A stretch of DNA of 64,000 nt. Source: Gammaproteobacteria bacterium (GTDB lineage Bacteria > Pseudomonadota > Gammaproteobacteria > Eutrophobiales > Eutrophobiaceae). The stretch is from assembly GCA_965222155.1 (NCBI GenBank), contig CBDCTH010000012.1, positions 2,848,001-2,912,000 on the forward strand, in the 5' to 3' direction. The translations under genes and the position numbers were made by a program. The notes beneath the pieces were generated by a model, which made no database searches, was not told where the DNA came from, and was given only the letters and a program-made list of their open reading frames with translations. Below are positions 10,036 through 30,117 of this stretch, in pieces. Every line of letters starts with the position of its first letter. Positions within the stretch are counted from its first letter, which is position 1.

Positions 10036-10508
10036 ATTTGAGCCATGCGTTGTTATCACTGAAGAAGACCGAATACGAGACTGATCTATTGCGTAGACTT
10101 AGACTCATGAATAATACTGCACTCTCGTATACTGAATGGACACAATCCAGTGATCCGAATTTCAAGAGTCCGACAAAGGCAAAAGCTTATTCATTGGCCC
10201 GTACCGTGAACTTAAATCCACTTCCAAAACCTCCACCCTTCAGAGAACACCCGGTTTGGGTAATAAATTCAAACAAGGGATTACGTTCCCTGAAAAAGCC
10301 TGTTGTACTTCAGGTAAAAATCGAAGGAGACACTTATTTTGCGGAAAATAATTTCCTGGAAATCTGCGGATATGGAGATAGCCCCTTTAAGGCCTTGGAT
10401 GATGCAATAAAAGAACTCGCTTATTGCTATGAGTATTATGGAAACCTTAATGAAAATGAAGTTGTCGGACACGGTGTTACAGTCAGAAATCGATTTCTGG
10501 ATCTGTAA
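10032..10508 (+). CDS. Hypothetical protein with a HicB-like C-terminal region
   Basis: ATGA overlap with the helicase stop. YFAENNFLEICGYGDSPFKALDDAIKEL resembles the HicB-type G.G.S..EA..D motif. Confidence 0.5.
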   Translation: MNLSHALLSLKKTEYETDLLRRLRLMNNTALSYTEWTQSSDPNFKSPTKAKAYSLARTVNLNPLPKPPPFREHPVWVINSNKGLRSLKKPVVLQVKIEGDTYFAENNFLEICGYGDSPFKALDDAIKELAYCYEYYGNLNENEVVGHGVTVRNRFLDL

Positions 10509-10525
10509 TTTACCAGGAGTGTCCC

Positions 10526-10815
10526 ATGGAAAGAGAGAAAATCGCGTCCTCATTAAGGAAAAAAGGATTTGTCGAGGATATTAAGGGCCGTGACCACCGA
10601 TACTACCATCATCAGGTCAACGGAAAAAGAACAGGAGTACGGACCAAGCTTTCCATGGGCAGTAAATATAAACGTCTCGGAACTCCACTGCTTGCAAAAA
10701 TAAAAAACAATTGAAATTAGACTCTTCCAAAGATCTCGCTGATTTAGTGAATTGCCCTATGACGGAAGATGACTATATCGAAATTCTTAAAGTCAAAGAT
10801 ATACTGAAATTGTAG
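10526..10815 (+). pseudogene. HicA-like toxin, frameshifted at an A6 run (may be a sequencing error)
   Basis: SLRKKGF...GRDHRYY...RTKLSMG. Adding one A at 10702-10707 continues the frame as KQLKLDSSKDLADLVNCPMTEDDYIEILK to TAG at 10815. Confidence 0.6.
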
Positions 10816-11217
10816 AAGTCATGGCTTGAACGACCTTGCCGTGTTGCATTTCGAATGTCACTACAAACTTCAACATATCTGGAATTATTTGTATTATTCC
10901 AACACGACGATCAGCAAATCATCAGTCGGATAAATCGTAGTCAATAGCTTTCACTTCTCACCAAGTGATACGATGATAAATCGCCAAAACAGACGATTTG
11001 CACGGCGTAAACCGCCCGTAGGGTTACTTCCATAGATGGACGCGATGACAAATCGTTGGGATAAACGATCTGTACAACTCCAGGGGCAAGCTTTGTATGT
11101 TGTAAACAGAGCGCACATTAAGCGAAATCCGCAATAACGAGATAGTGAGCAGAATGCCAAAACCCCTTGACAGAAAACACATGTCCGATAGCAACAAATT
11201 ACGGTGAAATAGCTGGG

Positions 11218-12636
11218 CTAGAAAAACACCTGGGTGCGAAATGACAGGTACTCGGGGTCGCCATCGCCGATTCCCCAGTCACAGGTGTCTGCGCCGCCAT
11301 TGTCACAGAATGTTTTGACGTAATTCAGCTTGAACATCATGTTATTGTTGACATACCAGTTCAGCGCGGCGGTGAGTACGTCACCGGAATCAGCGCCGAT
11401 ACCGGCGCCAAGGTCGGTAGAACTGTAGCGCAGGCCCACTTCCCAGCTGCCCCAGCCGCCTCCGCCCAACGGGTCCTTGACCTTGACGCTGGTGAACGCG
11501 CCCCTGTTATAGCGCCGATTCTCCCCGGTGAGAAAATAACTGCCCTGGACGTAATAGCCTTCCATGTCGGTATCTCCGGCAATATCGATACCGTCAAAAT
11601 CACCGTAATAGTATTCCGCGCTGGCCGCAAACGGGCCCCAGACGCCGGCAGCCTCCAGGTTCATTCCCCAGAAATTATCTGCTGCAATGGCGCTGTCAGA
11701 ATCCACAATCCGATCGCCCTCGGATACGCCGGGCCTGACGCGGAACCGGTTCACCGTCCTGTTGGCATAGTGCTTATAGCCGAACGCTGCGCCGGTATGG
11801 ATCAAGCGGTTGCCTGACTGGTTAACCGGTAACCAGGTCACTCGCCCGGTAACCCCCCAACCGTCGTCGAGTTTACGTTCACTGATGGAGTCGGTAGCGC
11901 CGGCGCGTTGGCGCATCAGGTAGAGGCCGCCAGCCAGCGTATGTTTGTCTCCGGCATTCTCCAGGGTAATGCCGGGCGTGCGCCCGCCGATACCGATGGC
12001 CTCCGAGGTAAACAGGTCGGTCGGCACCGCGCGTTCGATAAAGGTAATGTATTTTGAGCTGGTCAGCGCGCTGAGAGAGAACGGCGCCTTGCGCTGGCCG
12101 ACAGTGACATCTGCCGGGTCCCAGGCCTTGTACTTGATGAACGCATCTTCAATGGACATGCTGTTGTCATCGGCGTCCTCCAAGTCGAACTGGAATTTCC
12201 AGTCCCAGTGTTCCCAGGCCGTGCCGGACAGGTAGATACGCGCCCGGCGGAATTGCTGCTCGCTGCTGCCTGCGTTGCCGTCGCTGTCGTTGCCGACCAG
12301 GGTGACATCATGCTGAGCGCGCGCGCCGATGCGAAATTTATGTTCATCAGTCTTGAACTCCAGTTTTCCCGCCGTTGTTATCCGGGGGGAAGGTTTGGCA
12401 GCCGCAACCACTTCAGGCTCCGGCTTGGACGCTGTTTGCGCGGTCTTTTTTTGCCCCTCAGCCAGGGCGGTCTGTCTCAACAGTTCGTATTCCTGCCCGC
12501 TGATACTCCCCTTGTCTCTGAGGATTTTCAACAGTTCCAGCATCGTGCTGTCGGCTGCATGGCTCGGTGCGTTCATCACGACCAGGCCGATTGTAAGTAG
12601 CGCGGCACATAGAAACCTGAAGGTTGCTTTATACAT
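11218..12636 (-). CDS. Phosphate-selective porin, OprO/OprP family
   Basis: Signal peptide; FRRARIYLSG, SSKYITFIER, YYVQGSYFLTGE, GSWEVGLRYS, LNWYVNNN; terminal Phe; Pho-box-like repeats upstream. Confidence 0.88.
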   Translation of the reverse strand: MYKATFRFLCAALLTIGLVVMNAPSHAADSTMLELLKILRDKGSISGQEYELLRQTALAEGQKKTAQTASKPEPEVVAAAKPSPRITTAGKLEFKTDEHKFRIGARAQHDVTLVGNDSDGNAGSSEQQFRRARIYLSGTAWEHWDWKFQFDLEDADDNSMSIEDAFIKYKAWDPADVTVGQRKAPFSLSALTSSKYITFIERAVPTDLFTSEAIGIGGRTPGITLENAGDKHTLAGGLYLMRQRAGATDSISERKLDDGWGVTGRVTWLPVNQSGNRLIHTGAAFGYKHYANRTVNRFRVRPGVSEGDRIVDSDSAIAADNFWGMNLEAAGVWGPFAASAEYYYGDFDGIDIAGDTDMEGYYVQGSYFLTGENRRYNRGAFTSVKVKDPLGGGGWGSWEVGLRYSSTDLGAGIGADSGDVLTAALNWYVNNNMMFKLNYVKTFCDNGGADTCDWGIGDGDPEYLSFRTQVFF

Positions 12637-12713
12637 ATTTGTTCTCCTTGGAACTATAGGAATTTATGCTTGTAGGCAGGTGCGACATCTCCTGAATAGA
12701 GTGCGCGAAATAA

Positions 12714-12752
12714 GTTACATTATTGTTAATTCTGGGTGATCATTCTGTTACA
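12714..12752 (-). promoter_or_regulatory. Tandem Pho-box-like repeats upstream of the porin
   Basis: Minus-strand TGTAAC / GATCAC / ATTAAC / TGTAAC half-sites at exact 11-bp spacing. Confidence 0.6.
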
Positions 12753-12793
12753 ACACGCAAGGACAGCGGTACTTGCCATAACCCCGGGCAGGT

Positions 12794-13612
12794 TCAGAAC
12801 CCCCGGTGTTCCTTGATGCATTCGTAGGCCTGGCGGATCTCGTGTGTCTTCTGGGTGGCTATTTTCATCATTTCCTCGGGCAGTCCTTTCGACACCAGTT
12901 TGTCCGGGTGGTGCTGGCTGATCAGGCGGCGGTAGGCTTTTTTTACTTCGGCATCGCCGGCGTTTTCCTGTATGTCCAATACTGCATAGGCGTCATCCAG
13001 CGTGATGCGGCCATCGCCCTGGCGGCGGCGGTGCAGCTCGGCGGTAACCGATGCCAGGATGGATTCCAGCTCATACCCGGAGAAACCTATTTCATCACAA
13101 ACCAGGTGCAGCACGCGGTTTTCCGCGGGGTGCAGGGCCCCGTCGGCGTAGGCGGCATAACAGAGTATTTCAACGAACATCCGCTGCAGGGTAGTGCGCC
13201 GGCCGATTTCCCGTTGGAACTGGGAGAGGACGGCGTAGATGTCGAAACTCTCTTCCTTGCCTTCATTGAATAAGGCTTTGGCCGCGGCGCGCTGTTGCAG
13301 CGAAAGGTCCATATCCTCCATGACGCGGGCGGCCAGGCGGATTTCGTCTTTAGTGACTTTGCCGTCCGCCTTGCTGATGTGGCCCATCACGGAGAAGATG
13401 GCGGTAAAAAAGGCTGCTTGCACGCGGTACTGGTGGCCGCGCGGGAGGTCGCCGGACTGTCTGCTGCTACGGCGCCTGCCACCCGGTTGTTCGAAGTTGC
13501 CGGTTACGCCCCTGTCGAAATTACGCCCGACTGCCGCGCCCAGCACCGCGCCGAGCGGCCCACCCAGCATAAAGCCGAATGCGCCGCCGGCAAGGGTTCC
13601 CCACCATGACAT
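12794..13612 (-). CDS. djlA: Co-chaperone DjlA
   Basis: N-terminal GGAFGFMLGGPLGA membrane anchor, TerB-like KADG domain, C-terminal J domain HHPDKL..KGLPEEM. Confidence 0.95.
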   Translation of the reverse strand: MSWWGTLAGGAFGFMLGGPLGAVLGAAVGRNFDRGVTGNFEQPGGRRRSSRQSGDLPRGHQYRVQAAFFTAIFSVMGHISKADGKVTKDEIRLAARVMEDMDLSLQQRAAAKALFNEGKEESFDIYAVLSQFQREIGRRTTLQRMFVEILCYAAYADGALHPAENRVLHLVCDEIGFSGYELESILASVTAELHRRRQGDGRITLDDAYAVLDIQENAGDAEVKKAYRRLISQHHPDKLVSKGLPEEMMKIATQKTHEIRQAYECIKEHRGF

Positions 13613-13679
13613 TAGCTGGCTACCTTTTTCATGTTCATTTAATATTAAAGCAATATAATCTTAACGATTGTTTCTATTC

Positions 13680-14207
13680 TCATACGTTATGATGCGCTAT
13701 TATTTCTCCTGGTCGCGCCAGGTGCAGCAGTTCGCCTGCTGCGGCTGTGCTCATGGACCCTGCGTCGGCAAACCCGAGCACCGCAAGCGCCGCGGTGGTC
13801 ATCAGTTTACCCGTCTCCGTCAAGGGCGGTTGAGTCCTGCATAGGAAATATAATAATTCATCCATACCCGGATTATGTCCCGTAATCATGAGATTAGCGC
13901 AACCTTGGCTGTATTGTTCAATCAGGCCAAGCAACGCGCCCAGCGACGCGCCATAAATGCCATCTTCATATACAATGCTCCCGACACCCAGTTCGTTATT
14001 GACCGCTGCCAGGGTTTCCCGGGTACGCAACGCCGGTGAACACAGGATGAGGTCCGGGATGATGGCGTTTTTTTTCATCCATTCGCCCATGCGGGGCGCA
14101 TCCTTACGGCCCCGTGGAGCCAGGGGCCGCTCAAAATCACCCCGTGCGCCACTGTCCCAGTCGGACTTGGCGTGTCGCAGCAGGATTAAACGGGCTTCTT
14201 TCAGCAT
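13680..14207 (-). CDS. sixA: Phosphohistidine phosphatase SixA family
   Basis: LILLRHAKS, ERPL..RG, CSPALRTRET, GHNPG. Start placed at ATG 14207. Confidence 0.85.
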   Translation of the reverse strand: MLKEARLILLRHAKSDWDSGARGDFERPLAPRGRKDAPRMGEWMKKNAIIPDLILCSPALRTRETLAAVNNELGVGSIVYEDGIYGASLGALLGLIEQYSQGCANLMITGHNPGMDELLYFLCRTQPPLTETGKLMTTAALAVLGFADAGSMSTAAAGELLHLARPGEIIAHHNV

Positions 14208-14252
14208 CAACCTACGTGAGAAATACCGGACAGGTGACTGGGATTGTACAAC

Positions 14253-15746
14253 ATGAGTTCCCCGATGAGTGAAACTTTTGCAGCCGTTGACCTGGGGTCC
14301 AACAGTTTTCACATGGTGGTGGCAAAATTCGAGGATGGCCAGGTGCGTATTATCGACCGGCTCAAGGATATGGTGCGCATAGCTTCCGGACTGGACAGCA
14401 ACAACAACCTGACGGAAGAGGCAATGGAGCGGGCGTTACTGTCCCTGCGCCAGTTTGGTCAACGTATCAGGGAAATCCCCAGGACCAACGTGAAAGCAGT
14501 GGGCACCAATACCTTGCGCCAGGCGCGCAATGGCAAGGATTTCCTCCGGCAGGCGCGTTTGGCGCTGGGCCATAATATTGACATCATATCCGGCCAGGAA
14601 GAGGCCAGGCTGGTATTTATCGGTGTGGCGCACACGTTTTATAACGATGACGGCGCCAGCCTGGTGATTGATATCGGTGGCGGCAGCACCGAGATCATAA
14701 TCGGCAAAGGGTTCCAGCCCAAAGTAGCCGAAAGCCTGTATATGGGTTGTGTCAACGTCAGCCGGCGCTTCTTCGCCGACGGCAGCATCAGCGACCGGCG
14801 CATGCGCGAGGCCGTGTTATTTGCCCGCACCGAACTCGAAACCATCGAAGCCCGGTATCGGCGCATCGGCTGGGATACCGTCCTGGGTTCATCGGGCACG
14901 ACCTGGGCCGTTGCCGATATTGCCGTGGCTCAGGGCTGGAGTGAGGGAGGCATCACCCGGGACGCGGTGGAACAGCTGCGCAACCGGCTTATCGGCGCGG
15001 GCCATTATGACAGGCTCTACCTGGAAGGGTTGTCGGAACGCAGGAAACCGGTTATTGCCGGCGGCCTCGCCATCCTCAGCGCCATCATTGAGGCGCTCGA
15101 CCTGGACCATATCCAGATCTGCGAAGGCGCACTGCGTGAAGGGATAATTTATGAACTCGTCGGCAGATACCAGAATAAGGATATACGCAACACGACCGTA
15201 GCAGACATCGCGGTCCGTTACGGCGTGGACCGGGAACAAGCCGATAAAGTGGCTAAAACCGCGGCAACATTGTTTGACCAGGCGCGCGAGCACTGGCGCT
15301 TAGACGACTCTGATCGGGACACGCTGCTGTGGTCGGCGCAACTGCATGAAATCGGGCTGGCAATCGCCCATGCTCAATATCACCACCACGGCGCCTACCT
15401 GTTGTCCAACTCCGATATGCCGGGTTTCTCACGCCAGGAACAACAAAACCTGTCCTTGCTGGTACGCGCCCACAGACGGAAATTTCCCGCCCTGGAATTC
15501 GACCAGGCAGACCCGGACAACCGCGAGAAAGTGCTGCGCCTCGCCATCCTGCTCAGGTTATCCTGTGTCATGAACAGGAGCCGCTCTTACACGGCGCCAC
15601 CCAAAATCAAGGCTGTGGCCAATACAAACGGCCTGTCACTGAAGTTCCCTGATGTCTGGCTGGACAACCATGCCCTGACCCGGGCTGACCTGGAAATTGA
15701 AGCGGGATACCTGGAGGTTGTTGATTTTAGGCTAGGATTTGGTTGA
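14253..15746 (+). CDS. ppx: Exopolyphosphatase Ppx/GppA
   Basis: AVDLGSNSFH, GTNTLRQA, ISGQEEARL, DIGGGSTE, GALREG, LHEIG. Confidence 0.95.
   Translation: MSSPMSETFAAVDLGSNSFHMVVAKFEDGQVRIIDRLKDMVRIASGLDSNNNLTEEAMERALLSLRQFGQRIREIPRTNVKAVGTNTLRQARNGKDFLRQARLALGHNIDIISGQEEARLVFIGVAHTFYNDDGASLVIDIGGGSTEIIIGKGFQPKVAESLYMGCVNVSRRFFADGSISDRRMREAVLFARTELETIEARYRRIGWDTVLGSSGTTWAVADIAVAQGWSEGGITRDAVEQLRNRLIGAGHYDRLYLEGLSERRKPVIAGGLAILSAIIEALDLDHIQICEGALREGIIYELVGRYQNKDIRNTTVADIAVRYGVDREQADKVAKTAATLFDQAREHWRLDDSDRDTLLWSAQLHEIGLAIAHAQYHHHGAYLLSNSDMPGFSRQEQQNLSLLVRAHRRKFPALEFDQADPDNREKVLRLAILLRLSCVMNRSRSYTAPPKIKAVANTNGLSLKFPDVWLDNHALTRADLEIEAGYLEVVDFRLGFG
15627..15746 (+). repeat. Last 120 bp of ppx, duplicated at 26532-26601 + 28691-28740
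   Basis: Gap-free codon alignment, about 85/120 nt identical by hand count. Confidence 0.8.
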
Positions 15747-15834
15747 AATGGCCCCTTGGCGGGTTCCGAGGGCGAAAATACGGCGCTCAGCAAAAGCTAC
15801 AACTAAATATAAGAATCTTTTGATTATGGAAAAA

Positions 15835-17754
15835 TCACCACTCGCTCAACCCCCATAAATTTGTACCAACTGCGACCAAACGCTCATTCCCATGTATCTG
15901 CATGTTTTCTGCAACTCCCCTTATTTCAGACAAACGTCGCTTCAATTCTTGACTACTTAGAGGTTCACCTGCTTCCTCCAATATCTGAATAAAAGAGTCA
16001 ATCGTTTCGATTCGATCGCCAGCCGTCATTCCAGAATCTGCTCTTGCCCAAACCATACGGTTTAAAAAAGTAATTTTTGAAGAACGTGCAATGCACATAC
16101 GTAACACGTAGTGGTCTAGCTCTTCCAGAACACCAGGGAACTGAGTGGTCAACTGTTCGATGATTTCTTCGGAATGCCACTGCTTATTGATAGGAGCTTG
16201 ATAAAGCATATGCTCTACTACGCGGCAAATACTTTGACGTTTGGAAGCGGGCAACGGGCAATGATCGATCAACCCATAAGTACCCCGATCAAACGGCCAA
16301 ACACTCTCTCTTATAAGAGCATTATGAGCTGTTCGTTCATCTACCTCTTTACCCAATAATTCACTTGCCCTTTTAGCAATTTCAGTAAAATGCAACGGAC
16401 CTTCTGCTTGAGCAAGAACTGCAGTCACCGCTGATTCTGCCGATTTCCCAAAGGCAATTAATAATGCTTGCGAGTCTTCGTCTTCGTATTGTAGAAACTC
16501 ATCGAATATTTCATGCAAAAGAGGAACCAATTCCCGTGAACTGTATTCGGACAAACTAGTTTCTATATATTGTTTGATATCGCTTCGCCCCCACTGCTTT
16601 TCTTCAGCTTTTTGTTTTAATCTAGCGCGAAGCTCACGTACTAAAACATCCCATTCATTTTGGTTGATTCTTGTTACAACATTTCTCCCGGCTGCTGTGA
16701 TAACACAGACTGCATTTTTTGAAAATAACTGTATCGTTTGGGCAAGGTAAACATAGTTGTCCTCAAATCCTTTAAACCACGTATCTTCAATCTCCAACAG
16801 TTCCAAAATAAGTGGTTCTTCTCGGTCCAGTAATAGCTGTCCGATACGGATGCCAATCATATCGTCCCAGTATTCCTGGGCAATAATACGATTAACGTAT
16901 TTTGTTTGGCGTTGTCTTACCCGTTCTCGAGTTACATCAAGTATTTCGCCAATTTCTTCTAATGTTAGAAGTTTTCCTTTATGCCCAAGACGTCCCTGCA
17001 ATACAATTCTGTCCACTTCATCTAACTCATCTAACGTCCTTTCCAGATGTGTTATCAAGGGCAATTGCGCCACATGAGAATTCAAACGAACCAAATAGCT
17101 TTTATCAATTGTGTCTTCTGGCGTTACACCTAAGCCATCTGGCGGCCAGCTTTCCAATTTTGTCCCCAATGACAAGCCGTACGCGGTCAGTGCATCCTTA
17201 ATTTCTTTCAAGGACGTTTTACCCAGATTGGGCATTTTTAATAACTCAACTTCCGTACATTGAACCAGTTCGCCAATATAACGAATGCTGTTTGCTCCCA
17301 TGCAATGTGTGGAACGTACAGACAACTTCAAATCAGCTATCGGACGTAACAAATTTAGGTCAACTTCTGGCTCCGGCTCATCAACTGGATGTAACTGGAC
17401 CAAGTCTACTTCCGGTTCTTCAATCTCATAACCCCACTGATTTAGAGCCAGATAGCAGGGTGTTACTGCCTCATTCAGCTTGATATGTGTAATTACATTT
17501 ACGCTATTTTTGTATACTTCGGGCAGTGCCCATTTCACCGCGCCTGAATACAGCACTTTGCCTGAAGTATTCTCTGGAAGCTCAATGTGATTATTAACTT
17601 GAGGTCTTGTAAAACCGCAGTGGATGATGGCAGTCTTAGCCGCGTCAGACCGTCTATTCCATACTTGTTGCAAACTATCTAATTCACGAACGGTGACAAT
17701 TTCTTCGACCTGATTGTTTTTAACTACAATCAGGTAAAGTTTAAGCGCGGACAT
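15835..17754 (-). CDS. Protein with an RNA polymerase alpha-CTD domain, a sigma70 region 4 HTH and C-terminal winged-helix-like repeats
   Basis: aa ~131-207 [15 protein letters not shown]...[33 protein letters not shown]...LSLG..LESWPP parallels RpoA CTD; aa ~240-290 [18 protein letters not shown] is sigma region 4; starts 2 nt after the upstream stop. Confidence 0.85.
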
Positions 17755-17756
17755 AA

Positions 17757-18131
17757 CTAATCCAATAACTTATCCCAGGGTAGCTTGCCCATGTTTTTAT
17801 CATAAGCATCATAAAAATCCCGAATACCCTGCTCTCCGAAACGCTCAACTATATGATAAATTGCTTCACCCTGCTTCTGTAAATTTGCTGCATCAACAGC
17901 AAAAAACAATGCCTTATCCGGGTCTAACTCACCCACACGAAATGCATTATCGGTTTTCTCTGATAAAGGCTCAGGTGTTATGCCCTTCTTTACCCCCAAA
18001 GCTACAGCTAGGCGATATAAATCGAATTTGATCAAAGTTTGTCCGCTGGCTTCACTATTCAGAGAATCAAGCATTTCATCAAGGTAAGCATTCGCTTGTT
18101 TGGTTAAACCGATTCGTGGCGGCTCTGCCAT
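17757..18131 (-). CDS. pbeD: Small protein, probable PbeD
   Basis: 124 aa, directly after the SMC-like ATPase. Assigned mainly by position and size in a dndCDE-pbeABCD layout. Confidence 0.55.
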
Positions 18132-20117
18132 TTACATCACCCTATCAATACGAGATTGCGTCGCGGAAACACGTTTGATTTCATAGCGCGCACCAATGCG
18201 CGAGGCAAAAACTTCCGTATCTTGCTTTGCATGAAGCTCACCTTCGTGTACTAACAATACAACCTGTTCAGACATATCAGGCAGGTACTGCAGAATATTT
18301 TTGCGGTGTTTGGGGTCTAATCGCCCTAAAGGGGTATCCATAACAATTGGTGCCTTCGTACCTGAAGTTTTATTAAGACCATCAATTAACGACAGCGCCA
18401 CGACCTGCTCTGCACCGGCACTGCGTTCATTTAGTATTCGCCCCCCTTGGTCCAAAATAGACAAACCATAACTTGGGTTAATTTTCAGATCCGAATAAGT
18501 TTTTTCCGTGGTTATTTGTTTAAAAGCTTTTGTGGCATGAGCTTGGACATCATCTTTTAATTTAAGACGTAGTTGATCGATGCCTTTAGCAAAGATCGTC
18601 TCTAATTGTTGCAATCTGTCTACACGCTGATTACTAACAGAACTTTGAACTCCCCCAAGCTTGGCTATTAATTGAGATATTTTTGCTTGCGTTTCAATAT
18701 TTTTTTCCCTTTTTTTATCCGCTTCTTCAATCCCAACCTCAACTTTAGCTAATAACTTCGACCAGCTTTCGCGTTTTTCTCGTTTCCGCATGATTTCCTC
18801 TGTATCAAAACCCTTTATTTCTTCTTCGATATCATTTCGCTTATTTTCAATAGCCATCAAATTTACTTTTTTCTGTGTGACCTTCCCCATATTAGCAATT
18901 ATTCGAGTGACCTCATTTTCTGAGCGTATACCTTCAAGATTATCAATAGTTTTATTGATTTCCGTTAGCTTATTAAAATCTACACTTTTGCCTGACTCCT
19001 TAGCCAGCAATTTGTTTAATTTTTGCTGTAATGGCAGCCTGATACTGTCGGGTATATCCTGCCCACAGGTATTACAAACTTCTTTATCTTCAAGAGACTT
19101 CTTCAATCCATCTATCTCGCCCTGCAGACTGATAGACTCACGCATAATCTGTTGATGCTTTTCGCGGTTTTCTTTCAAGTCGTTAACTATGGCTTGAACA
19201 CTATTAGCTAATACATCCTTCCAAACTGTTTGTAATAATTTATGGGTGTCATCATTGGCTTGTTTAATTTCGTCTTCAAAATTCTTTTGTTGAGCAGCTA
19301 ACCTGATAAGCTCCATTTTTTTATTTTGTACTACTTCTGTGTTTTTCAAAAAGTCGTCGAGATTATCAATTTTTTCCTGAAAATCTTCTTTTTGAGAATT
19401 TAAGTCTCTAAGGTCATTCTCTATGCTTTCCAGTTTGATCTCGTGATTTTGTTGATCTTGCGCGAACTTACGCAGGTCTTCATATTTTTGAGCATCTTTA
19501 CGTTGGGCAGTACGTGCGTACTTCAACAATTCCCGTAATTCATCTCTCGCATGCACTAATGCTGGAACACCCAATACAGATTCGATATGTTCCTTAATTT
19601 TCTTGCCTTGTTCACTTTCTTCGATTAAAAGGTTTTCATATTCCTGTAATAACTCGCCATCAAATAAAAAAAAGCGTGATACTTCTCTTGGCATTATCTG
19701 GTTAATTTCATTATTGATTGCATCACCTATTATGGGAGTTCCGTCGATTCTTAGGCCAATGACCTCCCTAAAATCGGCATTGTTCCTAGCTTTTGATGTG
19801 TTTTCAAGCTTCTCAATCTTGCGCTCTAGCTGATAGCTTCTTCCATCGTGATTAAAATATAAGGAAACAGACATTGTCCAATCTCCCTCATCTGTGGCAT
19901 CACGATTGACCAGATTTAACCTGGGAATTTCACGTAGGTGACGACCTAGAGCAACCCCGTAAAACCCCCAGCGGATTGCATTTAAGAAACTTGTTTTTCC
20001 CCGCATATTATCGCCAAAGAGCAACATCACATTTTGTGTTTCATGCTGGGGAAACTCGATTTCCTGTTTGCCCTTGAAGGGCATAAAATTATGGAAAATT
20101 ACTTTTTTTACTTTCAT
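18132..20117 (-). CDS. pbeC: SMC/Rad50-like AAA ATPase, probable PbeC
   Basis: Walker A GDNMRGKTS, FFLFDGE, long coiled coil with zinc-hook-like CNTC, signature SAGAEQ, Walker B/D-loop MDTPLGRLD. Confidence 0.75.
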   Translation of the reverse strand: MKVKKVIFHNFMPFKGKQEIEFPQHETQNVMLLFGDNMRGKTSFLNAIRWGFYGVALGRHLREIPRLNLVNRDATDEGDWTMSVSLYFNHDGRSYQLERKIEKLENTSKARNNADFREVIGLRIDGTPIIGDAINNEINQIMPREVSRFFLFDGELLQEYENLLIEESEQGKKIKEHIESVLGVPALVHARDELRELLKYARTAQRKDAQKYEDLRKFAQDQQNHEIKLESIENDLRDLNSQKEDFQEKIDNLDDFLKNTEVVQNKKMELIRLAAQQKNFEDEIKQANDDTHKLLQTVWKDVLANSVQAIVNDLKENREKHQQIMRESISLQGEIDGLKKSLEDKEVCNTCGQDIPDSIRLPLQQKLNKLLAKESGKSVDFNKLTEINKTIDNLEGIRSENEVTRIIANMGKVTQKKVNLMAIENKRNDIEEEIKGFDTEEIMRKREKRESWSKLLAKVEVGIEEADKKREKNIETQAKISQLIAKLGGVQSSVSNQRVDRLQQLETIFAKGIDQLRLKLKDDVQAHATKAFKQITTEKTYSDLKINPSYGLSILDQGGRILNERSAGAEQVVALSLIDGLNKTSGTKAPIVMDTPLGRLDPKHRKNILQYLPDMSEQVVLLVHEGELHAKQDTEVFASRIGARYEIKRVSATQSRIDRVM

Positions 20118-20122
20118 AACAA

Positions 20123-20320
20123 CTACCGGCCGTCATTTTTATTAAGACTGGCCTCAACTAGTTCTCGCATTCTTTCGACTGTATTACGACTTGGATCAAA
20201 CTGGTGTTTTTTTTGTAGTTCATAACATTGCTTTATAAGTTGATCATCAACATCTAATCCCTCACGTCCTTTAATATTCAGCAAAAGGGCAATGATATTG
20301 CTTGACTCAGACATCGCCAT
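20123..20320 (-). CDS. pbeB: Small protein, probable PbeB
   Basis: 65 aa, overlaps the helicase end and sits just before the ATPase. Assigned by position and size. Confidence 0.55.
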   Translation of the reverse strand: MAMSESSNIIALLLNIKGREGLDVDDQLIKQCYELQKKHQFDPSRNTVERMRELVEASLNKNDGR

Positions 20321-22430
20321 TCTCTTCCTCCTCTATGCCGTCGCTATCCATTAACCCTACTGGATCAATATCTAATTCTATAGCCAAATTAGCCAATTCA
20401 ATTGCCGCACTACTGTTTAACGCAGTTTTAGCAAACTGGATACCCCTCTGGAACTCACTCTTTAGCAAAGAAAATTGTTCTGGCTCAGACTCCAAACTTA
20501 CCGGCACTACAATGGCATCGAAAAGAACTGCCTTGTATTTATCCTTGCATGTTCTTAAAACACGTCCTCGCCTTTGAATAAATTGCCTTGGATTCTGGGA
20601 AGAAGCCAAAATAATTGCGTGCGAAATTTTAGGTATATTGACTCCCTGATCCAAACATTTGATAGAACAGAGTATACCCCCGAAATTCTCAAAATATTCA
20701 AGGGTTGCTGTAGTATCACTCTCCATATTCGTATGGTATTCCAACGGAGAAAATCCTTCACGCTTTAAAGAATCCATAACTTGTCTTAATTGAAACTGAT
20801 CCTCACAATAAATGAGCCAGCTCTCGCCCTCATGATACTGTTTCTTTAAGATATCTACAGTGAGAGGAGTTTTTGCTTTAGCCTTCTTCGCTATCCTCGA
20901 GCGTTGGATGATTAAGTTTTGTAAGTATGGCGAAATATGTACATTTCCATCCCTATCTCGTTTGGAACGTGCAAACTCCTTTGAAATCTTATCGGTTTCT
21001 TTCGCCCACTGCTCTGACTCTTCCGCATTAAGCCGAACAGTCACAGGAAAATACTCATAGGGCACAAGACGCCTATCGTTTATCGCATCTACTAATGTAT
21101 ACGGAGGTTGAACAATTACACCAAAATAATTCAGTATTTTGGATGTGCCCTCAGGGTCACCATATCTTTTGGGTGTCGCGCTCAATCCGAGCCTTGGCCC
21201 TGAATCGATAGTTAGTGCTTTAGAGTTCTCTCTACTCCCAACTTCATGTACCTCATCGGCAATTAGCATGATATGTTTACCTTGATTAAGAGAAGCTAGA
21301 AAAGCATCTGTACGCGCTGTCTGCATCGTCACTAATACAACTCTTTTTCCTAAGCCCTGTAACGGTGATGTAAAATCAAACAGTCGCCTGTCTTTTTTCC
21401 ATCTGTTGTGTCCATCACCTGCCTTTAATAGATGCACTCCTTCAATTTCTTCAATAAGTTCTACAGCCCATTGACGATGTAACAGCTTATCTGGAACTAA
21501 AATAATAGCTACGCCTTGAGGCTCCAAGTGTTCTTTGAGGGCGGTGATGGTAGTGAACGTTTTACCGCTACCAGTTGCGTGTTCTAAAATTCCTTTTTTG
21601 TCCTGTTTTTTCCACTCAGCAATAGCTTTTAACTGATGCTTTAGAGGTTTGCGTATTTCATGTGAAGGAGACTCTTCTTTGATTTTATGTTCTGCCAGTT
21701 GATGACCAAGACTGAAAAAATCAATGATATCTCCAGAGTTAATATCATCCAAAGAACTTTTCGCTACCGTTTTGAGCTTTTCTATTCCCACTTCAGGAAA
21801 CGGTATTACTTCCAGATCCCGTACCTGACTATTCCATAGCTTTTCAAAATATTCCTGGTCGCGCCCTACTTGTCTCTCATCTCTACCTTCACGCCAACTA
21901 CAGAATACATCCAGCGTTTCATGATTTCCTCTTTCACACCAACCAGTCCAAGTTTCATTAATTGATCCTTTGAAACTAACGGCATTGTTAAGCTCATCAT
22001 AGAAAATACCCAATTTCGCGTGATAATCACCTTGAGCCTCAGGTAAAAAAGCGAGTTTTACCTCCATTACACCCAGTGAAATTAATGTGGCCAATGCTTC
22101 TGTATTTTTTGCAACCGGCTGATTGGCTAACAAAAAGTCTATATCCCTACTAAGGGCGCTATATGCACCGTCAAATTTGTTTTTATAACCCGTATCAATG
22201 GCTTCAATGTCGTCTTCTGTCAGGTATGGAGAGCTTACCAAGCGTATTTTTCCGCCTCGTTTCACAAAGTTGATGATATCGGGACCAATTAGGATAAAAA
22301 CTGAAGAGCGAAAATAGCCTACAGACCGATTGTATCCGACAGCCTCGGAAAGACATGGACGATAAAAGGCTTCAACCAAATCTGTATCACCGGTAAAATA
22401 TTCCTCTTGTAGATGAATATCTTTTAACAA
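20307..22430 (-). CDS. pbeA: PLD-nuclease + DEAD/DEAH helicase, probable PbeA
   Basis: N-terminal RSVGYFRSS, YHAKLGIF (HxK), GSINET; helicase HATGSGKT, DEVH, LSATP, QFIQRRGRVLR. Confidence 0.78.
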   Translation of the reverse strand: MLKDIHLQEEYFTGDTDLVEAFYRPCLSEAVGYNRSVGYFRSSVFILIGPDIINFVKRGGKIRLVSSPYLTEDDIEAIDTGYKNKFDGAYSALSRDIDFLLANQPVAKNTEALATLISLGVMEVKLAFLPEAQGDYHAKLGIFYDELNNAVSFKGSINETWTGWCERGNHETLDVFCSWREGRDERQVGRDQEYFEKLWNSQVRDLEVIPFPEVGIEKLKTVAKSSLDDINSGDIIDFFSLGHQLAEHKIKEESPSHEIRKPLKHQLKAIAEWKKQDKKGILEHATGSGKTFTTITALKEHLEPQGVAIILVPDKLLHRQWAVELIEEIEGVHLLKAGDGHNRWKKDRRLFDFTSPLQGLGKRVVLVTMQTARTDAFLASLNQGKHIMLIADEVHEVGSRENSKALTIDSGPRLGLSATPKRYGDPEGTSKILNYFGVIVQPPYTLVDAINDRRLVPYEYFPVTVRLNAEESEQWAKETDKISKEFARSKRDRDGNVHISPYLQNLIIQRSRIAKKAKAKTPLTVDILKKQYHEGESWLIYCEDQFQLRQVMDSLKREGFSPLEYHTNMESDTTATLEYFENFGGILCSIKCLDQGVNIPKISHAIILASSQNPRQFIQRRGRVLRTCKDKYKAVLFDAIVVPVSLESEPEQFSLLKSEFQRGIQFAKTALNSSAAIELANLAIELDIDPVGLMDSDGIEEEENGDV

Positions 22431-22481
22431 CAGAAAAACCCCTGATAAGGCCTACGAAACTTCTATTCGGTTCATCATGCC

Positions 22482-22886
22482 TTAATTACTCTGTTTATCT
22501 TTATGTTGCCTCGTGAGAGAAAGCAAATCGGACAAACATCTGACCTTTCCCGATGTCCCTAAGTAGCCGATACCACGGTGGAGATGTAATTTAAACTGCT
22601 GCGCCAACGTTGTATCGTCAGTTGGTAACTTGTCACGAAGACAACGCGTTTTCAACACAGCGATCAGTAATTCTTCATTACCAGGGCCTGTAAAAGTCCG
22701 CCAGGACATCTCTACGTTGCTATCAGTAACAATATCCATTTTGGGGGGTATACTTTTTTCCGCCAAAGAAAGGCAAAATGCCCACCTGCAGAGAATATTC
22801 CATTGAGATATACCAGTTTTGCGCTTCAAATTAGACAAACGGTCTTTTGCTTCACTGGACAGCCGGATGTTTCCTAGGCCAGTCAT
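22482..22886 (-). CDS. dndE: DNA sulfur modification protein DndE
   Basis: IRLS..AKDRL..LKRKTGI..WNILCRWAFCLSLAE...DSNVEMSWRTF...LHLHRGIGYL. Confidence 0.95.
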   Translation of the reverse strand: MTGLGNIRLSSEAKDRLSNLKRKTGISQWNILCRWAFCLSLAEKSIPPKMDIVTDSNVEMSWRTFTGPGNEELLIAVLKTRCLRDKLPTDDTTLAQQFKLHLHRGIGYLGTSGKVRCLSDLLSLTRQHKDKQSN

Positions 22887-24871
22887 ACACTCTCCAGAAA
22901 TCCGTTAGAAACAGTGGTTGCACCCGTTGCGTCATCATAGTCTAAGTGGTAACTCTTTCCGACCCATGGGCGCAATCGATATAGATAATCGCCAGCAATT
23001 TCTTCATCTGTGGTAAACAGCAATGTTTGATGGCTCGCGTTGGGGAGATATCGCTCGACCAGACGGTCCCGGTGAGTTGAATCGAGACGTCCCATTGGCG
23101 TGTCAATGGCAACAGGCAGTAATTTACCTGACGCTTTTGCCATTCCCCATAGCAGGGCGACAGCCAGTAACTGTCGCTCGCCGGCTGATAACTGCTCGGA
23201 GGAAATGGGGGTTTGTTCCATGTCGCGCAGAAGAACAGCAAAGGTCTCCGGATGGATCCGTAATGTAGAAATCAACCTGTCTTTACGTAGTAAGGATTGA
23301 TAACTTTCCAGTGCCAGACGTTCCACGCTCCCGATATGACGGTGCAAAACGGCGGAACCGAACTCCGCCAGTGTCTGTCTCGCTAATTGTGAGTGTTGCA
23401 TAAAACGTTCGTCGTCCCTGTGTGATAACTTAGATTCGGCATTCTTTTCCCATAAGGTATTGATCTGGGATTCGAGACGATCACTCTCCCTGCGTATTTT
23501 TTCAAGTTCACTGTCTATACTTGTGATTTCATTTTCCAGTCTTATGATTTTGGTAACCAGTAAATCACGTTTTTTGACAATCTCATCAATAGAATCTTCT
23601 GGAGGAATTCCCGCTTTTTCTAACAGCGCCGCTTTCATTTCATCCCCTAGCTTGTGCTGCTTCACGAGTATATCCCTGACACTTTTTTCCAAACGAGACA
23701 GTTTGCTTTGCAGAAACGTATTCAGTCGCGTGACATTAGCATCACTTATGTTTAGCGGGGTTTTACCGGCTGCCAGTTCCTCCTGTTTTTCTAAATCGTC
23801 CTTGCAGAATTCTTCCAAAGCTTCCACCACGGCAGATGTATTCGACAGGGTTTGTACCAAACGAAGCATTCTAGTATCGCGCTCGCGCAGGTTTTCCACC
23901 ATGGCACGAGCCTGTGCAATCTTCTGTCCCTTTGTTGCATAACAGGCTACATCGTGCAATAGATCCTCGATCAAGAGCAATGGCAATTCGCTATTTGCGA
24001 GTTCCGCCATTTGGATATTACAAGCATCAAGGTTAGCTTCTACTTTGTTTACGCGGCGTTGTATTTCCTCGCGCCGGTCACGTAGTTCGCCCCCCAACAT
24101 TCGATACTCCTCCATCACGCAAGCTAGATCATCTCTGACCATGTCCAGTTCCTGTGTTTGTAGAACGGCTCTTTTTTCCACCTTCCGTTCGATTTGTTTA
24201 CGGAGAGACCTTGACTCCTTTTCTTTTTGGCGGATGATTTCGTTGTCTACGGCAGGCATTGTCGTACCCTGCCGCCGTCGTTCCAGAACTCGCAGATCCT
24301 TTTGCAGGCGTTCTACCACGTCTATACCAAACAGGTTGCGTACTCCGTTTGCGATCAGTTGACGGGCGCCATCTGGTGACGCGTAGGCGGCAATTTTTTC
24401 CCCATCAAAGAAGAACAGATGAGCAATATTCACCGGGATGATGTCATTGACATATTGGCCCCAGTTTTCCGTGAGAGATTTGTCAATACATTGATCTCGG
24501 GTAACCTCCAGTTTTTCCTTGACGCTATTGTTGGCACCTTCACTTTGCCAAGCACGAGTCACGTGGTAACAGGTTTCCACACTGTCTACAGTGCATCGAA
24601 AAACAACGGAAATGGAAGCCTGTCTCCTCGGTGAATGTTTATGGATTTTACTGGCGAGGAAGTCTTTATAACCACTACCATTGCGCCCTGCACACGTAGC
24701 TGCGGGGCCGAACAGGCACAGCTGTAGAGCGTCCATCAGTGTTGTTTTGCCAGCGCCGTTCAGTCCGCCAAACAACACAATCGGCTTATCCGAGGACGGC
24801 GGAGTCAAATCAATTTCCTGCACGCCAGCATACACCCCGAAGTCGTGCAATGTGATTTGATCAAGAATCAT
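22883..24871 (-). CDS. dndD: DNA sulfur modification protein DndD (SMC-like ATPase)
   Basis: GGLNGAGKTT, LFFFDGEKI, LSAGERQLLA, IDTPMGRLDSTHR, ASHQ; lies between dndC and dndE. Confidence 0.93.
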   Translation of the reverse strand: MILDQITLHDFGVYAGVQEIDLTPPSSDKPIVLFGGLNGAGKTTLMDALQLCLFGPAATCAGRNGSGYKDFLASKIHKHSPRRQASISVVFRCTVDSVETCYHVTRAWQSEGANNSVKEKLEVTRDQCIDKSLTENWGQYVNDIIPVNIAHLFFFDGEKIAAYASPDGARQLIANGVRNLFGIDVVERLQKDLRVLERRRQGTTMPAVDNEIIRQKEKESRSLRKQIERKVEKRAVLQTQELDMVRDDLACVMEEYRMLGGELRDRREEIQRRVNKVEANLDACNIQMAELANSELPLLLIEDLLHDVACYATKGQKIAQARAMVENLRERDTRMLRLVQTLSNTSAVVEALEEFCKDDLEKQEELAAGKTPLNISDANVTRLNTFLQSKLSRLEKSVRDILVKQHKLGDEMKAALLEKAGIPPEDSIDEIVKKRDLLVTKIIRLENEITSIDSELEKIRRESDRLESQINTLWEKNAESKLSHRDDERFMQHSQLARQTLAEFGSAVLHRHIGSVERLALESYQSLLRKDRLISTLRIHPETFAVLLRDMEQTPISSEQLSAGERQLLAVALLWGMAKASGKLLPVAIDTPMGRLDSTHRDRLVERYLPNASHQTLLFTTDEEIAGDYLYRLRPWVGKSYHLDYDDATGATTVSNGFLESV

Positions 24872-26375
24872 CTGTATGTGTGTCTATTTCCTGTTTTTCA
24901 GCCACCGCGGTGAGTATCTGCTGACGTTGCCGGGCACGACCGACGGCATCTTCTTCATCACTATAATAGTTGCGCTCAATTGCGCTTTGCAGAGATTGAA
25001 ACACACCGGTACGGCGTATTGCCGGTTTATGGCGGCTTCCTATGGCAAGCAGCTCTCGTACCATTTCGTATTGATTCTGATTTTCGCCGCACAATTCACG
25101 TAGTAGTTGCATTTCCTGAGCACTGAAAACCGCACTATTATTAAGCTTACGCCCAGGATATTCTTCGCCGGTGGCGTCCTGATAAATACGTGGGAGATTA
25201 TCTTCCATCTCATGTTTTTCCACGACCCAGATGCGGCGAATCTCCTCCATTTCTTCCAGCTGAATCAGAGACAGGTTGCGGACGTATTCCGGTCCAATAC
25301 GGCGCACGATTGCTTGCGTTTCCAGCAGACGATGCAGTAGATGTTCGCGAAATTCTTGCTTATAGGGGCCAGGAATAGTTCGTCCATGAAAAAGCTGAAC
25401 TTGGCCATTCATGCGCCGGTAGTCTCGTAAAGGGCGGTCACCACCTTCTGGCATTGCGCGAAAATCAATCTCAGCCCGAATCTCCAAAAGCGGCATCATC
25501 CATTGCTTTTCCTCGTCGTTATGAATCATAGCCTGCATAGATTTGTCTTTTTCCACCAGCGTGCAAACCCAGCAACCGAAACGACTGTCACCACAACTTG
25601 GCGTCCCACTGGACACCACCAGCGGACACTCACCACCTTCCGTTGCACCTTTATACATGCTGAACAGATCCATGTTATCATGCCCCCACGGATTAGACTT
25701 TTCCAGTAGAAAAAGCCAAACATCATCATTTGCCCAATCCTCAATCGGCGTGTAAATGAACGAGTTGGAAAGATTGGCGTTCGGACTGATTTTTGCTCGT
25801 ACTCGCCCTTCTTCATGTCGGTCCATTGTTCGCGCGCGAGCTACACTTTCCGCCTTGCGGGAACCGAGAACTAAAAGTGTTTCACCATGTTTGTCAACTA
25901 CGGACGAAATGAAACGATGCGCCGGACGGATTTTTAATCGCTCAGTACACCAACGAAATTTTTGGCGTGGCGCTGCGTACCCTCGTCCAATCAGATTGAC
26001 CCAAAAACTATCAGCCAACTCTGGCGTTAAGCGATGCGAGGTGATGGGTAACCCTTGTGCCTCGGCGGCGTTTTGCATCTTGCTCAACGAATTACCCACC
26101 CAGGCGGCGACAATCGGGTTTTCTACCAATGTGTCTGTGCTGATGACATGAACGGGCTTATGTGCCCGTTTCGTTCCAATGCTTTGCAATGCAAACCAAA
26201 CCAATTGCAGGGTTGCCGTCGAGTCCTTGCCGCCACTGTATCCGACCGTCCAGGGAATATCATCGGCAAGATACACTTCCACCAATTCCTGCACGATAAC
26301 AGCAACACCCTCCTCAAAATCACCGCACGCATCAAAATATGAACAAGGTATGTTACCGTTTTGTTTCGCAGTCAT
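24861..26375 (-). CDS. dndC: DNA phosphorothioation sulfurtransferase DndC
   Basis: YSGGKDS, DTLVENP, FRWCTERLKI, ECPLVV...PSCGDSRFGCWVCT. Confidence 0.95.
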   Translation of the reverse strand: MTAKQNGNIPCSYFDACGDFEEGVAVIVQELVEVYLADDIPWTVGYSGGKDSTATLQLVWFALQSIGTKRAHKPVHVISTDTLVENPIVAAWVGNSLSKMQNAAEAQGLPITSHRLTPELADSFWVNLIGRGYAAPRQKFRWCTERLKIRPAHRFISSVVDKHGETLLVLGSRKAESVARARTMDRHEEGRVRAKISPNANLSNSFIYTPIEDWANDDVWLFLLEKSNPWGHDNMDLFSMYKGATEGGECPLVVSSGTPSCGDSRFGCWVCTLVEKDKSMQAMIHNDEEKQWMMPLLEIRAEIDFRAMPEGGDRPLRDYRRMNGQVQLFHGRTIPGPYKQEFREHLLHRLLETQAIVRRIGPEYVRNLSLIQLEEMEEIRRIWVVEKHEMEDNLPRIYQDATGEEYPGRKLNNSAVFSAQEMQLLRELCGENQNQYEMVRELLAIGSRHKPAIRRTGVFQSLQSAIERNYYSDEEDAVGRARQRQQILTAVAEKQEIDTHTDDS

Positions 26376-26601
26376 CTTTATCCTAGTTCAATACTTATGA
26401 GACAAACTAAGCAGTCTGTGTGAATTGTTGATAATACGCCATTGGTAGTCGTTAAGCCAATTCCGTCATGGTAACGACAGGTGTTTTTACATGGTTGATA
26501 CTCTGACTGTTTTTGGTTAATGGCAGTCACCAACAGCCTGTCACTGAAATTCGCCCAGCGACGGTTGGACAACTATGCCCTGACCCGGGCCAACCAGCTA
26601 G

Positions 26602-29816: not shown

Positions 29817-29871
29817 AGTATTGATCTTCTTTCGTACATTATAAAGAAAGCGTTCATACCGAATTGAGTCA

Positions 29872-30117
29872 TCAAAATTCTCTGTACTCATATTCGAAGC
29901 AACTGACCTTGTCCACAAAGTCATTATTAGACTGTATGGCCTTTTTATTTTCTCCCCGCCATTGCTCAACTTTGCTCCACGCCAGTTTTTCCCACAACAC
30001 CTGCTCCAACGTTGCCGATAAGTTGATGTTCAGCGCCCTGGACTTATTTAGTAACTCACTGTTTAAAATAAGGTATATGGTTTTCTTTGGGGCCTGGTAG
30101 TCATACAATGGTTCCAT
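29872..30117 (-). CDS. ccdA: CcdA-family antitoxin (orphan)
   Basis: APKKT..L.LNSELL..SRALNINLSATLE..L...W..ENKKAI...N.FV.......YREF. Confidence 0.8.
   Translation of the reverse strand: MEPLYDYQAPKKTIYLILNSELLNKSRALNINLSATLEQVLWEKLAWSKVEQWRGENKKAIQSNNDFVDKVSCFEYEYREF

Follow-up and report, generated by a model that had tools for sequence, protein, structure and literature searches.

What does a protein built largely from RNA polymerase-type domains do at the end of an anti-phage gene string? This question is raised by a stretch of 64,000 nt from a Gammaproteobacteria bacterium (Eutrophobiales; Eutrophobiaceae; assembly GCA_965222155.1, contig CBDCTH010000012.1, forward-strand positions 2,848,001-2,912,000), which we call the window and whose coordinates are used throughout. 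It contains the Dnd-Pbe gene string dndCDE-pbeA-pbeB-pbeC-pbeD and, directly after it, one further gene at 15835..17754, which starts with ATG, encodes 639 aa followed by a stop codon and is provisionally named pbeE here. An earlier note on the sequence of the window had drawn attention to this gene; it had given the correct position, and the gene lies on the minus strand. As stated there, the gene is the last of the string and starts 2 nt past the stop of the 124-aa pbeD-like open reading frame (ORF), whose end at 17757 agrees with this distance. The note had counted the Pbe module as the four genes pbeABCD, which holds; with a 65-aa pbeB-like ORF newly added to the locus, pbeE is the fifth gene. 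It is a conserved fifth gene in one branch of Pbe anti-phage systems and has so far been unstudied.

Domain architecture of PbeE

An AlphaFold2 model of PbeE was built on 69 homologues (mean predicted local distance difference test score (pLDDT) 87.4). All segments described here are encoded on the minus strand. The beta-rich N-terminal domain (N-domain; residues 1-110; 17425..17754) is family-specific, carries an HCGFxRP motif and reached a pLDDT of 93.2 when folded alone. [quoted passage not shown] After a second disordered linker in the model (residues 206-223) come region 4 of sigma-70 (sigma4), comprising 4.1 and 4.2 (residues 225-294; 16873..17082) with four to five helices and the recognition helix TRERVRQ at 275-281, and five winged-helix-type modules (residues ~296-639; 15838..16872), which were assigned from the secondary structure of the model, VIA matches and HARE-HTH hits. 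Each of these modules (~296-361, 365-435, 436-497, 500-580 and 584-639) consists of three helices and a hairpin; the third is HARE-HTH-like and the fifth HARE/delta-like.

In Pfam, RNA_pol_A_CTD matched residues 133-190 (E 4.6e-19, 68.4 bits, cut-off 23.8) and Sigma70_r4 residues 241-285 (E 7.5e-10, 38.6 bits, cut-off 24.1), and the family profile retrieved from the PDB the alpha-CTD (3.5e-21) and region 4 of primary sigma factors (1.4e-18). The alpha-CTD shares 53/86 residues with the RpoA of its own host (62%, E 3e-31), the linker end and the WPP tail included, and its model superimposes on the E. coli alpha-CTD with a root-mean-square deviation (rmsd) of 0.6-0.9 A at 65% identity (Z 15.5). 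It had rightly been described as very close to RpoA, and the motifs listed for it are all in place: SVRS at 145, NLGK at 176, WPP at 203 and the double EPEVDL of the acidic linker at 113 and 128. The sigma4 part and the winged-helix segments that the note had recognised are likewise supported. The modules 436-497 and 500-580 matched winged-helix DNA binders (VIA, Z 7-8.6), and residues 584-639 gave a weak RNA polymerase delta-like match in NCBIfam (21.1 bits, cut-off 42).

Searches of Pfam, NCBIfam and PADLOC revealed no catalytic family, in agreement with the lack of a catalytic motif noted before. The alpha N-terminal domain of RpoA is not among the Pfam hits, and the RpoA equivalog models scored 93 bits against a cut-off of 302; Pfam gave no family for sigma region 2 or 3, and the NCBIfam sigma models all remained far under their cut-offs. 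We therefore rejected a genuine RNA polymerase subunit or sigma factor, since the core-binding domains are lacking. A DGQHR domain was absent in the Pfam and NCBIfam scans, and PbeE matched no PADLOC Pbe model and is not one of the four defined Pbe proteins. Sequence and model together suggest a non-enzymatic, multi-module protein that would bind nucleic acids.

This architecture is fixed in the family. A word-indexed search gave 109 relatives of PbeE and an exhaustive phmmer search with the N-domain alone 95 cluster representatives, in all but one of which the N-domain is N-terminal; P0164 (1598 aa) was matched internally, at residues 923-970. The set scanned further comprised P0001 and 57 of the 95 phmmer hits, with members down to 25% identity, and counts out of 58 refer to it. 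The 38 hits left out were mostly shorter and likely partial (every hit of <678 aa was among them), five were full-length members that alignments A1-A2 already contained and one was the 1598-aa protein. Among the 58 long N-domain-bearing proteins, all contain Sigma70_r4 and 57 RNA_pol_A_CTD.

For the N-domain, 24 of the top 25 VIA rows were nucleotide cyclases (best Z 7.2, rmsd 3.3, 98 aligned), the best Foldseek E value was 0.029, and an atlas look-up returned no usable hit. Class III nucleotidyl cyclases have a conserved metal-binding pair of acidic residues. No conserved acidic pair was found in the N-domains of the 58 members: positions 24 and 26 are acidic in 46/58 and 35/58, neither being near-invariant. 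An active nucleotide cyclase was rejected because this pair is missing. The residues classed as invariant are H45, G47, R50, G108 and Y109 (58 members; H45 and R50 nearly invariant). With cyclase-like fold scores that are themselves weak, the N-domain may, in our reading, be a degenerate palm-like domain and not an enzyme.

The gene follows pbeABCD at all readable loci

Nine loci with an N-domain-bearing homologue could be read: the window, G018, G004, L091, L092, G360, G061, G511 and plasmid NZ_CP015441.1 (Aurantiacibacter). The metagenome contigs L091 and L092 are probably one sequence and three loci belong to one genus, which leaves ~6 lineages. In 9/9 loci the homologue stands directly after pbeA-small ORF-pbeC-pbeD, with a gap of 1-13 nt. 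The earlier note had suggested looking for co-occurrence with dnd/pbe loci, and the link that emerged is one to Pbe. The modification partner is dnd in six loci and an N6/N4 DNA methylase in two, contig L091 being too short to tell. The dndCDE genes lie upstream and co-directional in the window, G018 and G004, and downstream and convergent in L092, G360 and G511, whereas the methylase precedes pbeA in G061 and on the plasmid; a search of the G061 genome, with 4888 bases outside the search, found no DndC. Since the modification partner varies, the gene is linked to the Pbe machine as such; both its strictly syntenic position and its close coupling to pbeD extend across lineages and modification types.

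The reverse question was asked with Pbe modules found by a PbeA search in the same genome samples. The gene is present where PbeA is 52-61% identical to that of the window (G061, G360 and G511). In G477 (PbeA 31%), the gene directly upstream of pbeA, whose start it overlaps, encodes a different protein of 868 aa that has nothing but the alpha-CTD+sigma4 pair in common with the family (hhalign 98.2%, E 3.5e-14, 150 columns). This protein and the fifth-gene loci together mean that the alpha-CTD+sigma4 pair recurs with Pbe in two arrangements. A weak RelA_SpoT-like gene (L123:10-831) directly precedes the alpha-CTD+sigma4 protein and pbeA in G477. The survey was uninformative for G101, where the contig ends, and for G420, where the match is partial.

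The pair was found once more beside a STAND-NTPase/caspase pair. A scan of genome contigs with alignment A1, which responds to the generic sigma4 motif, retrieved for the most part ordinary sigma factors (L010, L018, L065, L066 and L080 resemble these, judged by length), and L001 was the only longer relative. On this contig of a Polyangiaceae metagenome-assembled genome (1572-12193), a 1280-aa relative carrying sigma4 and a pair of alpha-CTDs is preceded by a 1467-aa NTPase of the STAND/HerA type (mad8-like, 1.2e-19) and by a protein that has a caspase and a bacterial death-like domain. A 567-aa relative on L098 (G085; 5675-18426) has sigma4 and HARE-HTH, and neither alpha-CTD nor N-domain; it stands directly behind an adhesin-like ORF of 3655 aa. 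The 17 kb upstream of it hold no Pbe genes, and no defence context is evident.

With this query the gene is rare and patchy. It was found in 3/22 other genomes of the genus, in 3/399 other genomes of the class sample (one genome unscored) and in 2/400 of the phylum sample, one of the two being an unpublished genome left out of further analysis. The metagenome scan gave 2 loci only, and the viral contig scan no homologue. BFVD matches to model m3e82b5930466 were weak (E 2.8e-4 to 1e-2) and consisted of stand-alone, ~130-aa uncultured-phage proteins annotated as alpha-CTD and of small sigma4-only proteins. In G019 (L090), from the same genus, only the last ~340 codons of the gene are left, with a frame break, between ppx and ppk. 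This is the site of the island in the window, so an island was lost there, and the remnant is the scar of this loss.

Conservation is concentrated in the DNA-contact residues

By structural alignment, E. coli alpha numbering equals the model residue +118. The 265 (DNA) determinant of the alpha-CTD is described as residues 265, 268, 294, 296, 298, 299 and 302, and the 287 determinant as 285-289, 315, 317 and 318 (PMC10853779; this and the other papers cited by PMC number are used for parts of their text). Contacts to sigma4 are reported for the 261 determinant, and contacts to CRP and further activators for the 287 determinant (PMC1874639). The equivalents of R265 and G296 are kept in 58/58 members, that of S299 in 56, N268 in 50, N294 in 48, D/E302 in 46 and K/R298 in 40. 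At the positions of the 261 and 287 determinants, no majority residue was found among the 58 members except L289; E261, which contacts sigma4 in RNA polymerase, corresponds to Lys in PbeE. The recognition-helix motif T-R-E-R-x-R-Q of sigma4 is kept in 52-58 of 58 and is also present in the RpoD- and RpoS-like genes of the host. That the DNA-contact residues are kept while the 261 and 287 surfaces are not argues for family-wide selection on the DNA face of each module.

Relation of the alpha-CTD to host RpoA

The only other alpha-CTD in the host genome belongs to a genuine, separate and full rpoA. At the DNA level, the alpha-CTD region of pbeE and host rpoA share 67% identity over 251 nt, for which reason we rejected recent copying from the host gene. 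The sigma4 part is 41-52% identical to host sigma factors.

Two subgroups can be distinguished. That of PbeE has alpha-CTDs in 1-3 tandem copies, which share 48-68% identity with the host RpoA CTD over ~80 residues; for the other subgroup, the corresponding identity is 28-44% over 50-60 residues. Between PbeE and the other subgroup, the winged-helix array is 64-75%, sigma4 51-70% and the alpha-CTD 23-32% identical, which makes the alpha-CTD the fastest-diverging part. For the Pbe-linked homologues of G360, G511 and G061, the identity of the alpha-CTD to the RpoA of the same host is only 19-27%. The RpoA CTDs of the compared genomes are 67-99% identical to each other, and for G018 and G004 they are 92% identical, whereas the orthologous alpha-CTD copies of these two share 46-49%. 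One of the G004 copies has Ser at the R265 position. The PbeE alpha-CTD is 62-64% identical to the RpoA of its own genus and 55-60% to others. In a short tree (~70 columns, without support values), the RpoA-like copies group with true RpoA CTDs and not with the other subgroup, which suggests that they stem from a later capture from an rpoA gene.

A DNA-reading subunit as favoured function

With moderate confidence, we regard PbeE as a DNA-reading or targeting subunit, an accessory fifth member of one clade of PbeABCD (CxC ABC-ATPase/DndE-like/HKD-SF2). DNA binding, a site preference, membership in a Pbe complex and an effect on defence are what we infer from the domains, the residue conservation and the synteny described above. 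The alpha-CTD would read the A/T-rich minor groove and sigma4 a -35-like site in the major groove, the same promoter-reading pair that lies adjacent on UP/-35 DNA when part of RNA polymerase. Further DNA contacts may come from the winged-helix/HARE array, which could possibly also sense the modification state of the DNA. Through the N-domain or the winged-helix array, PbeE could be tethered to a PbeC-PbeD scanner and, thus tethered, could place or license the PbeA nuclease-helicase on particular DNA.

Several points weigh against this function. PbeE has His at residue 150, the N268 equivalent, where 50/58 relatives have Asn, and Thr at the K298 equivalent, which may make its alpha-CTD a weaker DNA binder than that of RpoA. 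HARE-HTH (PF05066) at 444-475 scored 24.2 bits against a cut-off of 25.9; among relatives it was found in 20/22 at E <= 0.01 and in 23/58 at E <= 0.001. IS3-family insertion sequences (IS) interrupt the homologue in 2/9 loci, at 4043-5187 of L102 (G511) and at 10753-11924 of L116 (plasmid NZ_CP015441.1); G511 has a second copy of the same IS just upstream of pbeA. The gene was not found, with this query and in the stretch examined, in G537 (PbeA 37%), where the string ends after a 145-aa gene, and in G668 (33%), where an AAA_16 ATPase follows; it thus appears dispensable there. The archaeal four-gene system is reported to work without a fifth gene (PMC6459918).

A DNA binder encoded by the last gene could equally be a regulator. 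Binding to the UP/-35 region of its own (or another) promoter, PbeE would then repress or tune dnd-pbe as a transcriptional autoregulator of the BrxR, CapW or DndB kind. Such a role would fit a protein with only DNA-binding-type domains and no enzyme domain, in which the DNA-contact residues are conserved and alpha-CTD+sigma4 is the very pair that recognises a sigma-70 promoter's upstream half (3n97 is among the structural matches). We nevertheless judge it rather unlikely. Seven DNA-binding-type modules in 639-1000 aa are far above the need of known defence regulators, and the gene is last, close behind pbeD in every locus, instead of first or divergent. It also stays with pbeABCD whatever lies upstream (dnd, methylase or convergent dnd), so that the presumed operator would differ each time, and a promoter and terminator scan of 15500-27000 gave 17 sites, no better than shuffled sequences (19.0 +/- 4.3), with no operator that could be named. 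The earlier note had proposed a promoter-binding regulator in place of DndB; of this, the binding of promoter-like DNA is retained as a prediction from the sequence. The second half is doubtful, since a DGQHR gene lies 4 kb away in the island and homologues also accompany methylase-linked, dnd-less Pbe. Docking to RNA polymerase, with sigma4 on the beta-flap and the delta-like HARE-HTH on the core, would tether Pbe to transcribing or promoter-bound polymerase instead of directly to DNA. All three domain types occur in polymerase subunits (alpha, sigma and, by a weak match, delta), and among sigma factors the primary ones are closest to the sigma4 part. The conserved sigma4 residues, however, form the DNA-recognition helix, a free alpha-CTD has no known route into the enzyme, an alpha N-domain and sigma region 2 are lacking, and HARE-HTH is described as also common in restriction enzymes (PMC10853773). 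We consider such an adaptor very improbable.

The T4 proteins Alt and ModA ADP-ribosylate R265 of alpha, and AsiA binds sigma4. The decoy proposed in the earlier note builds on this: alpha-CTD and sigma4 would display polymerase surfaces that phages modify or bind, and an attack on the bait would switch on PbeA/PbeC. The RpoA-like subgroup offers some support, with similarity reaching into the linker end and the WPP tail, two parts not known to play a role at DNA, with its 1-3 copies and their place in the unsupported tree, and with the slightly greater closeness of PbeE to the RpoA of its own genus; the R265 equivalent, too, is kept throughout the 58. A bait is, however, expected to track its model, and the alpha-CTD drifts from RpoA while keeping its DNA face, which disfavours a decoy for the family as a whole. 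Mimicry cannot be the common function of the family, since G360, G511 and G061 retain so little identity to the RpoA of their own hosts. The rapid divergence of the alpha-CTD (compare the G018 and G004 copies with their RpoA CTDs), the unconserved protein-contact surfaces including Lys for E261, the modest identity of sigma4 to host sigma factors, the DNA-level distance from rpoA and the Ser in one G004 copy point the same way. As a family function the decoy is not supported, and overall it seems improbable. For the RpoA-like subgroup taken separately, the alpha-CTD might have been captured from rpoA and multiplied (1-3 copies) as an integrated bait; a phage factor that grips or modifies this domain or sigma4 would then free the reader from DNA or PbeCD and thereby fire the PbeA nuclease-helicase. 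We give this variant little credence; if true, bacteria would here possess an 'integrated decoy' of RNA polymerase.

A DNA-reading subunit thus remains the function that we favour. An enzyme-free DNA reader fixed to one Pbe branch would offer a concrete handle on target choice, as the sites that it binds would be open to mapping and RNA polymerase structures allow its DNA-contact residues to be predicted.

Neighbouring genes in the window

The string to which pbeE belongs has a G+C content of 38-49%, compared to ~55-60% in the flanks, and forms part of a defence island between ppx (14244-15746) and ppk (33206-35275). All its genes are on the minus strand. At its head are the phosphorothioation genes dndC-dndD-dndE (22482..26375; matches in Pfam, NCBIfam and PADLOC). 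They are followed by pbeA (20307..22430), encoding a phospholipase D-like (HKD) region and a superfamily 2 (SF2) helicase (PADLOC PDLC02707, 6.1e-211; TIGR04095, 1.7e-94; NF042964 phospholipase D-like anti-phage model, 8.4e-21, residues 16-401). The small pbeB-like ORF of 65 aa (20123..20320) lies between pbeA and pbeC; it overlaps the pbeA stop by 14 nt, ends 5 nt ahead of pbeC and is missed by the usual ORF-length cut-off. It matched none of the family models searched. ORFs of 62-66 aa occupy this place in L096, L097 and L102, and the record of plasmid NZ_CP015441.1 labels the one there 'DNA modification system-associated small protein'. The 65-aa ORF is the PbeB equivalent. The pbeC gene (18132..20117; PADLOC PDLC02725, 1e-257) encodes a DndD-like ABC ATPase, and a CNTC motif is visible in the coiled-coil region of its translation.

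The pbeD-like gene (17757..18131, 124 aa), assigned following PMC10853773 and closely coupled translationally to pbeE, is conserved and stands at the place expected for PbeD. Its product had no hit in Pfam, NCBIfam or PADLOC, and the hhalign comparison with the DndE of the window was not significant (probability 0.3%). Metatranscriptome contigs from four runs of one study fell on 17790-20343 (pbeD, pbeC and pbeB) with 95-100% likeness. These RNA-library contigs stem from a related strain, and none fell on pbeE, so that they are uninformative on its expression either way.

The island is split by an IS1634-family transposase gene (26739-28580, plus strand; 1.2e-80; 68% G+C) just upstream of dndC. 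Beyond it lie a 415-aa ORF (28722-29969, minus strand) with only weak matches to the PADLOC candidate PDC-S26 (1e-8) and, in the low-G+C region 30565-33122 (plus strand), the DGQHR-domain gene (30565-32172; TIGR03187, 1.1e-27), which overlaps a RelA/SpoT-like gene matching PADLOC candidate PDC-S33 (7.9e-34). Elsewhere in the window, a 1804-aa helicase (4621-10035, plus strand) matches Druantia DruE models (PDLC00013, 2.5e-108); it is overlapped by a 158-aa ORF of no known family (10032-10508, plus strand), and the ORF list contains no large DruH- or DruA-like partner upstream.

Comparison with known systems

The layout dndCDE-pbeABCD was published by Xiong et al. 2019 (PMC6459918) and re-annotated later (PMC10853773). 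In the archaeal system, PbeB has 66 aa and PbeD 152 aa, and all four genes are reported to contribute to defence (PMC6459918); PbeD is described as a DndE cognate (PMC10853773). In the original study, viral DNA was not found to be degraded, and the choice of target was left unexplained (PMC6459918); a later analysis argues that PbeC-PbeD scan DNA and that PbeA cleaves it (PMC10853773). The window resembles this system in having PbeA with HKD and SF2 parts, a 65-aa PbeB-like protein, PbeC and a 124-aa PbeD-like protein right after dndCDE, and differs by adding a fifth gene to the published four. A fifth alpha-CTD/sigma4 gene is not mentioned with Pbe in the consulted text of PMC6459918 or PMC10853773, nor was the gene in a wider full-text literature search, figures and supplements aside in both cases. 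Current annotation misses it as well: there is no PADLOC model, and the two NCBI names found are domain-level only, that of the plasmid homologue being 'sigma factor-like helix-turn-helix DNA-binding protein'.

Two other defence systems contain comparable parts. PglW of type 2 BREX has an alpha-CTD-like domain followed by three winged helix-turn-helix domains, which are read as its nucleic-acid-binding part (PMC12839542), and thus shares with PbeE an alpha-CTD-type helical domain and a following winged-helix run within a defence protein. In the reading favoured here, PbeE would act in the manner of this part of PglW. In contrast to PbeE, PglW is described with kinase, nuclease and STAND-like domains and without sigma4, whereas PbeE is a separate polypeptide, its alpha-CTD is recognisable by sequence, and it matches no PADLOC PglW model. 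MzaA of the MZA candidate defence system (NF041931, PDLC02203) likewise carries sigma region 4 in a defence-system protein; only a 60-residue sigma4 stretch of PbeE matches it (34.2 bits against a cut-off of 800), and PbeE is not a member.

The closest structural counterpart is the alpha-CTD and sigma4 of RNA polymerase on UP/-35 DNA (PDB 3n97; 3n4m, 1lb2). In PbeE, unlike there, both are fused into a single chain that lacks the alpha N-domain and sigma regions 1-3; the folds agree (alpha-CTD rmsd 0.6 A, 65-66% identity), and the DNA-contact residues are retained. Fusions of bacterial alpha, sigma and HARE-HTH domains were reportedly described by Aravind & Iyer in 2012. In PbeE and its relatives, the promoter-reading pair of RNA polymerase, alpha-CTD and sigma4, would have been taken up by defence systems as a portable unit for DNA recognition.

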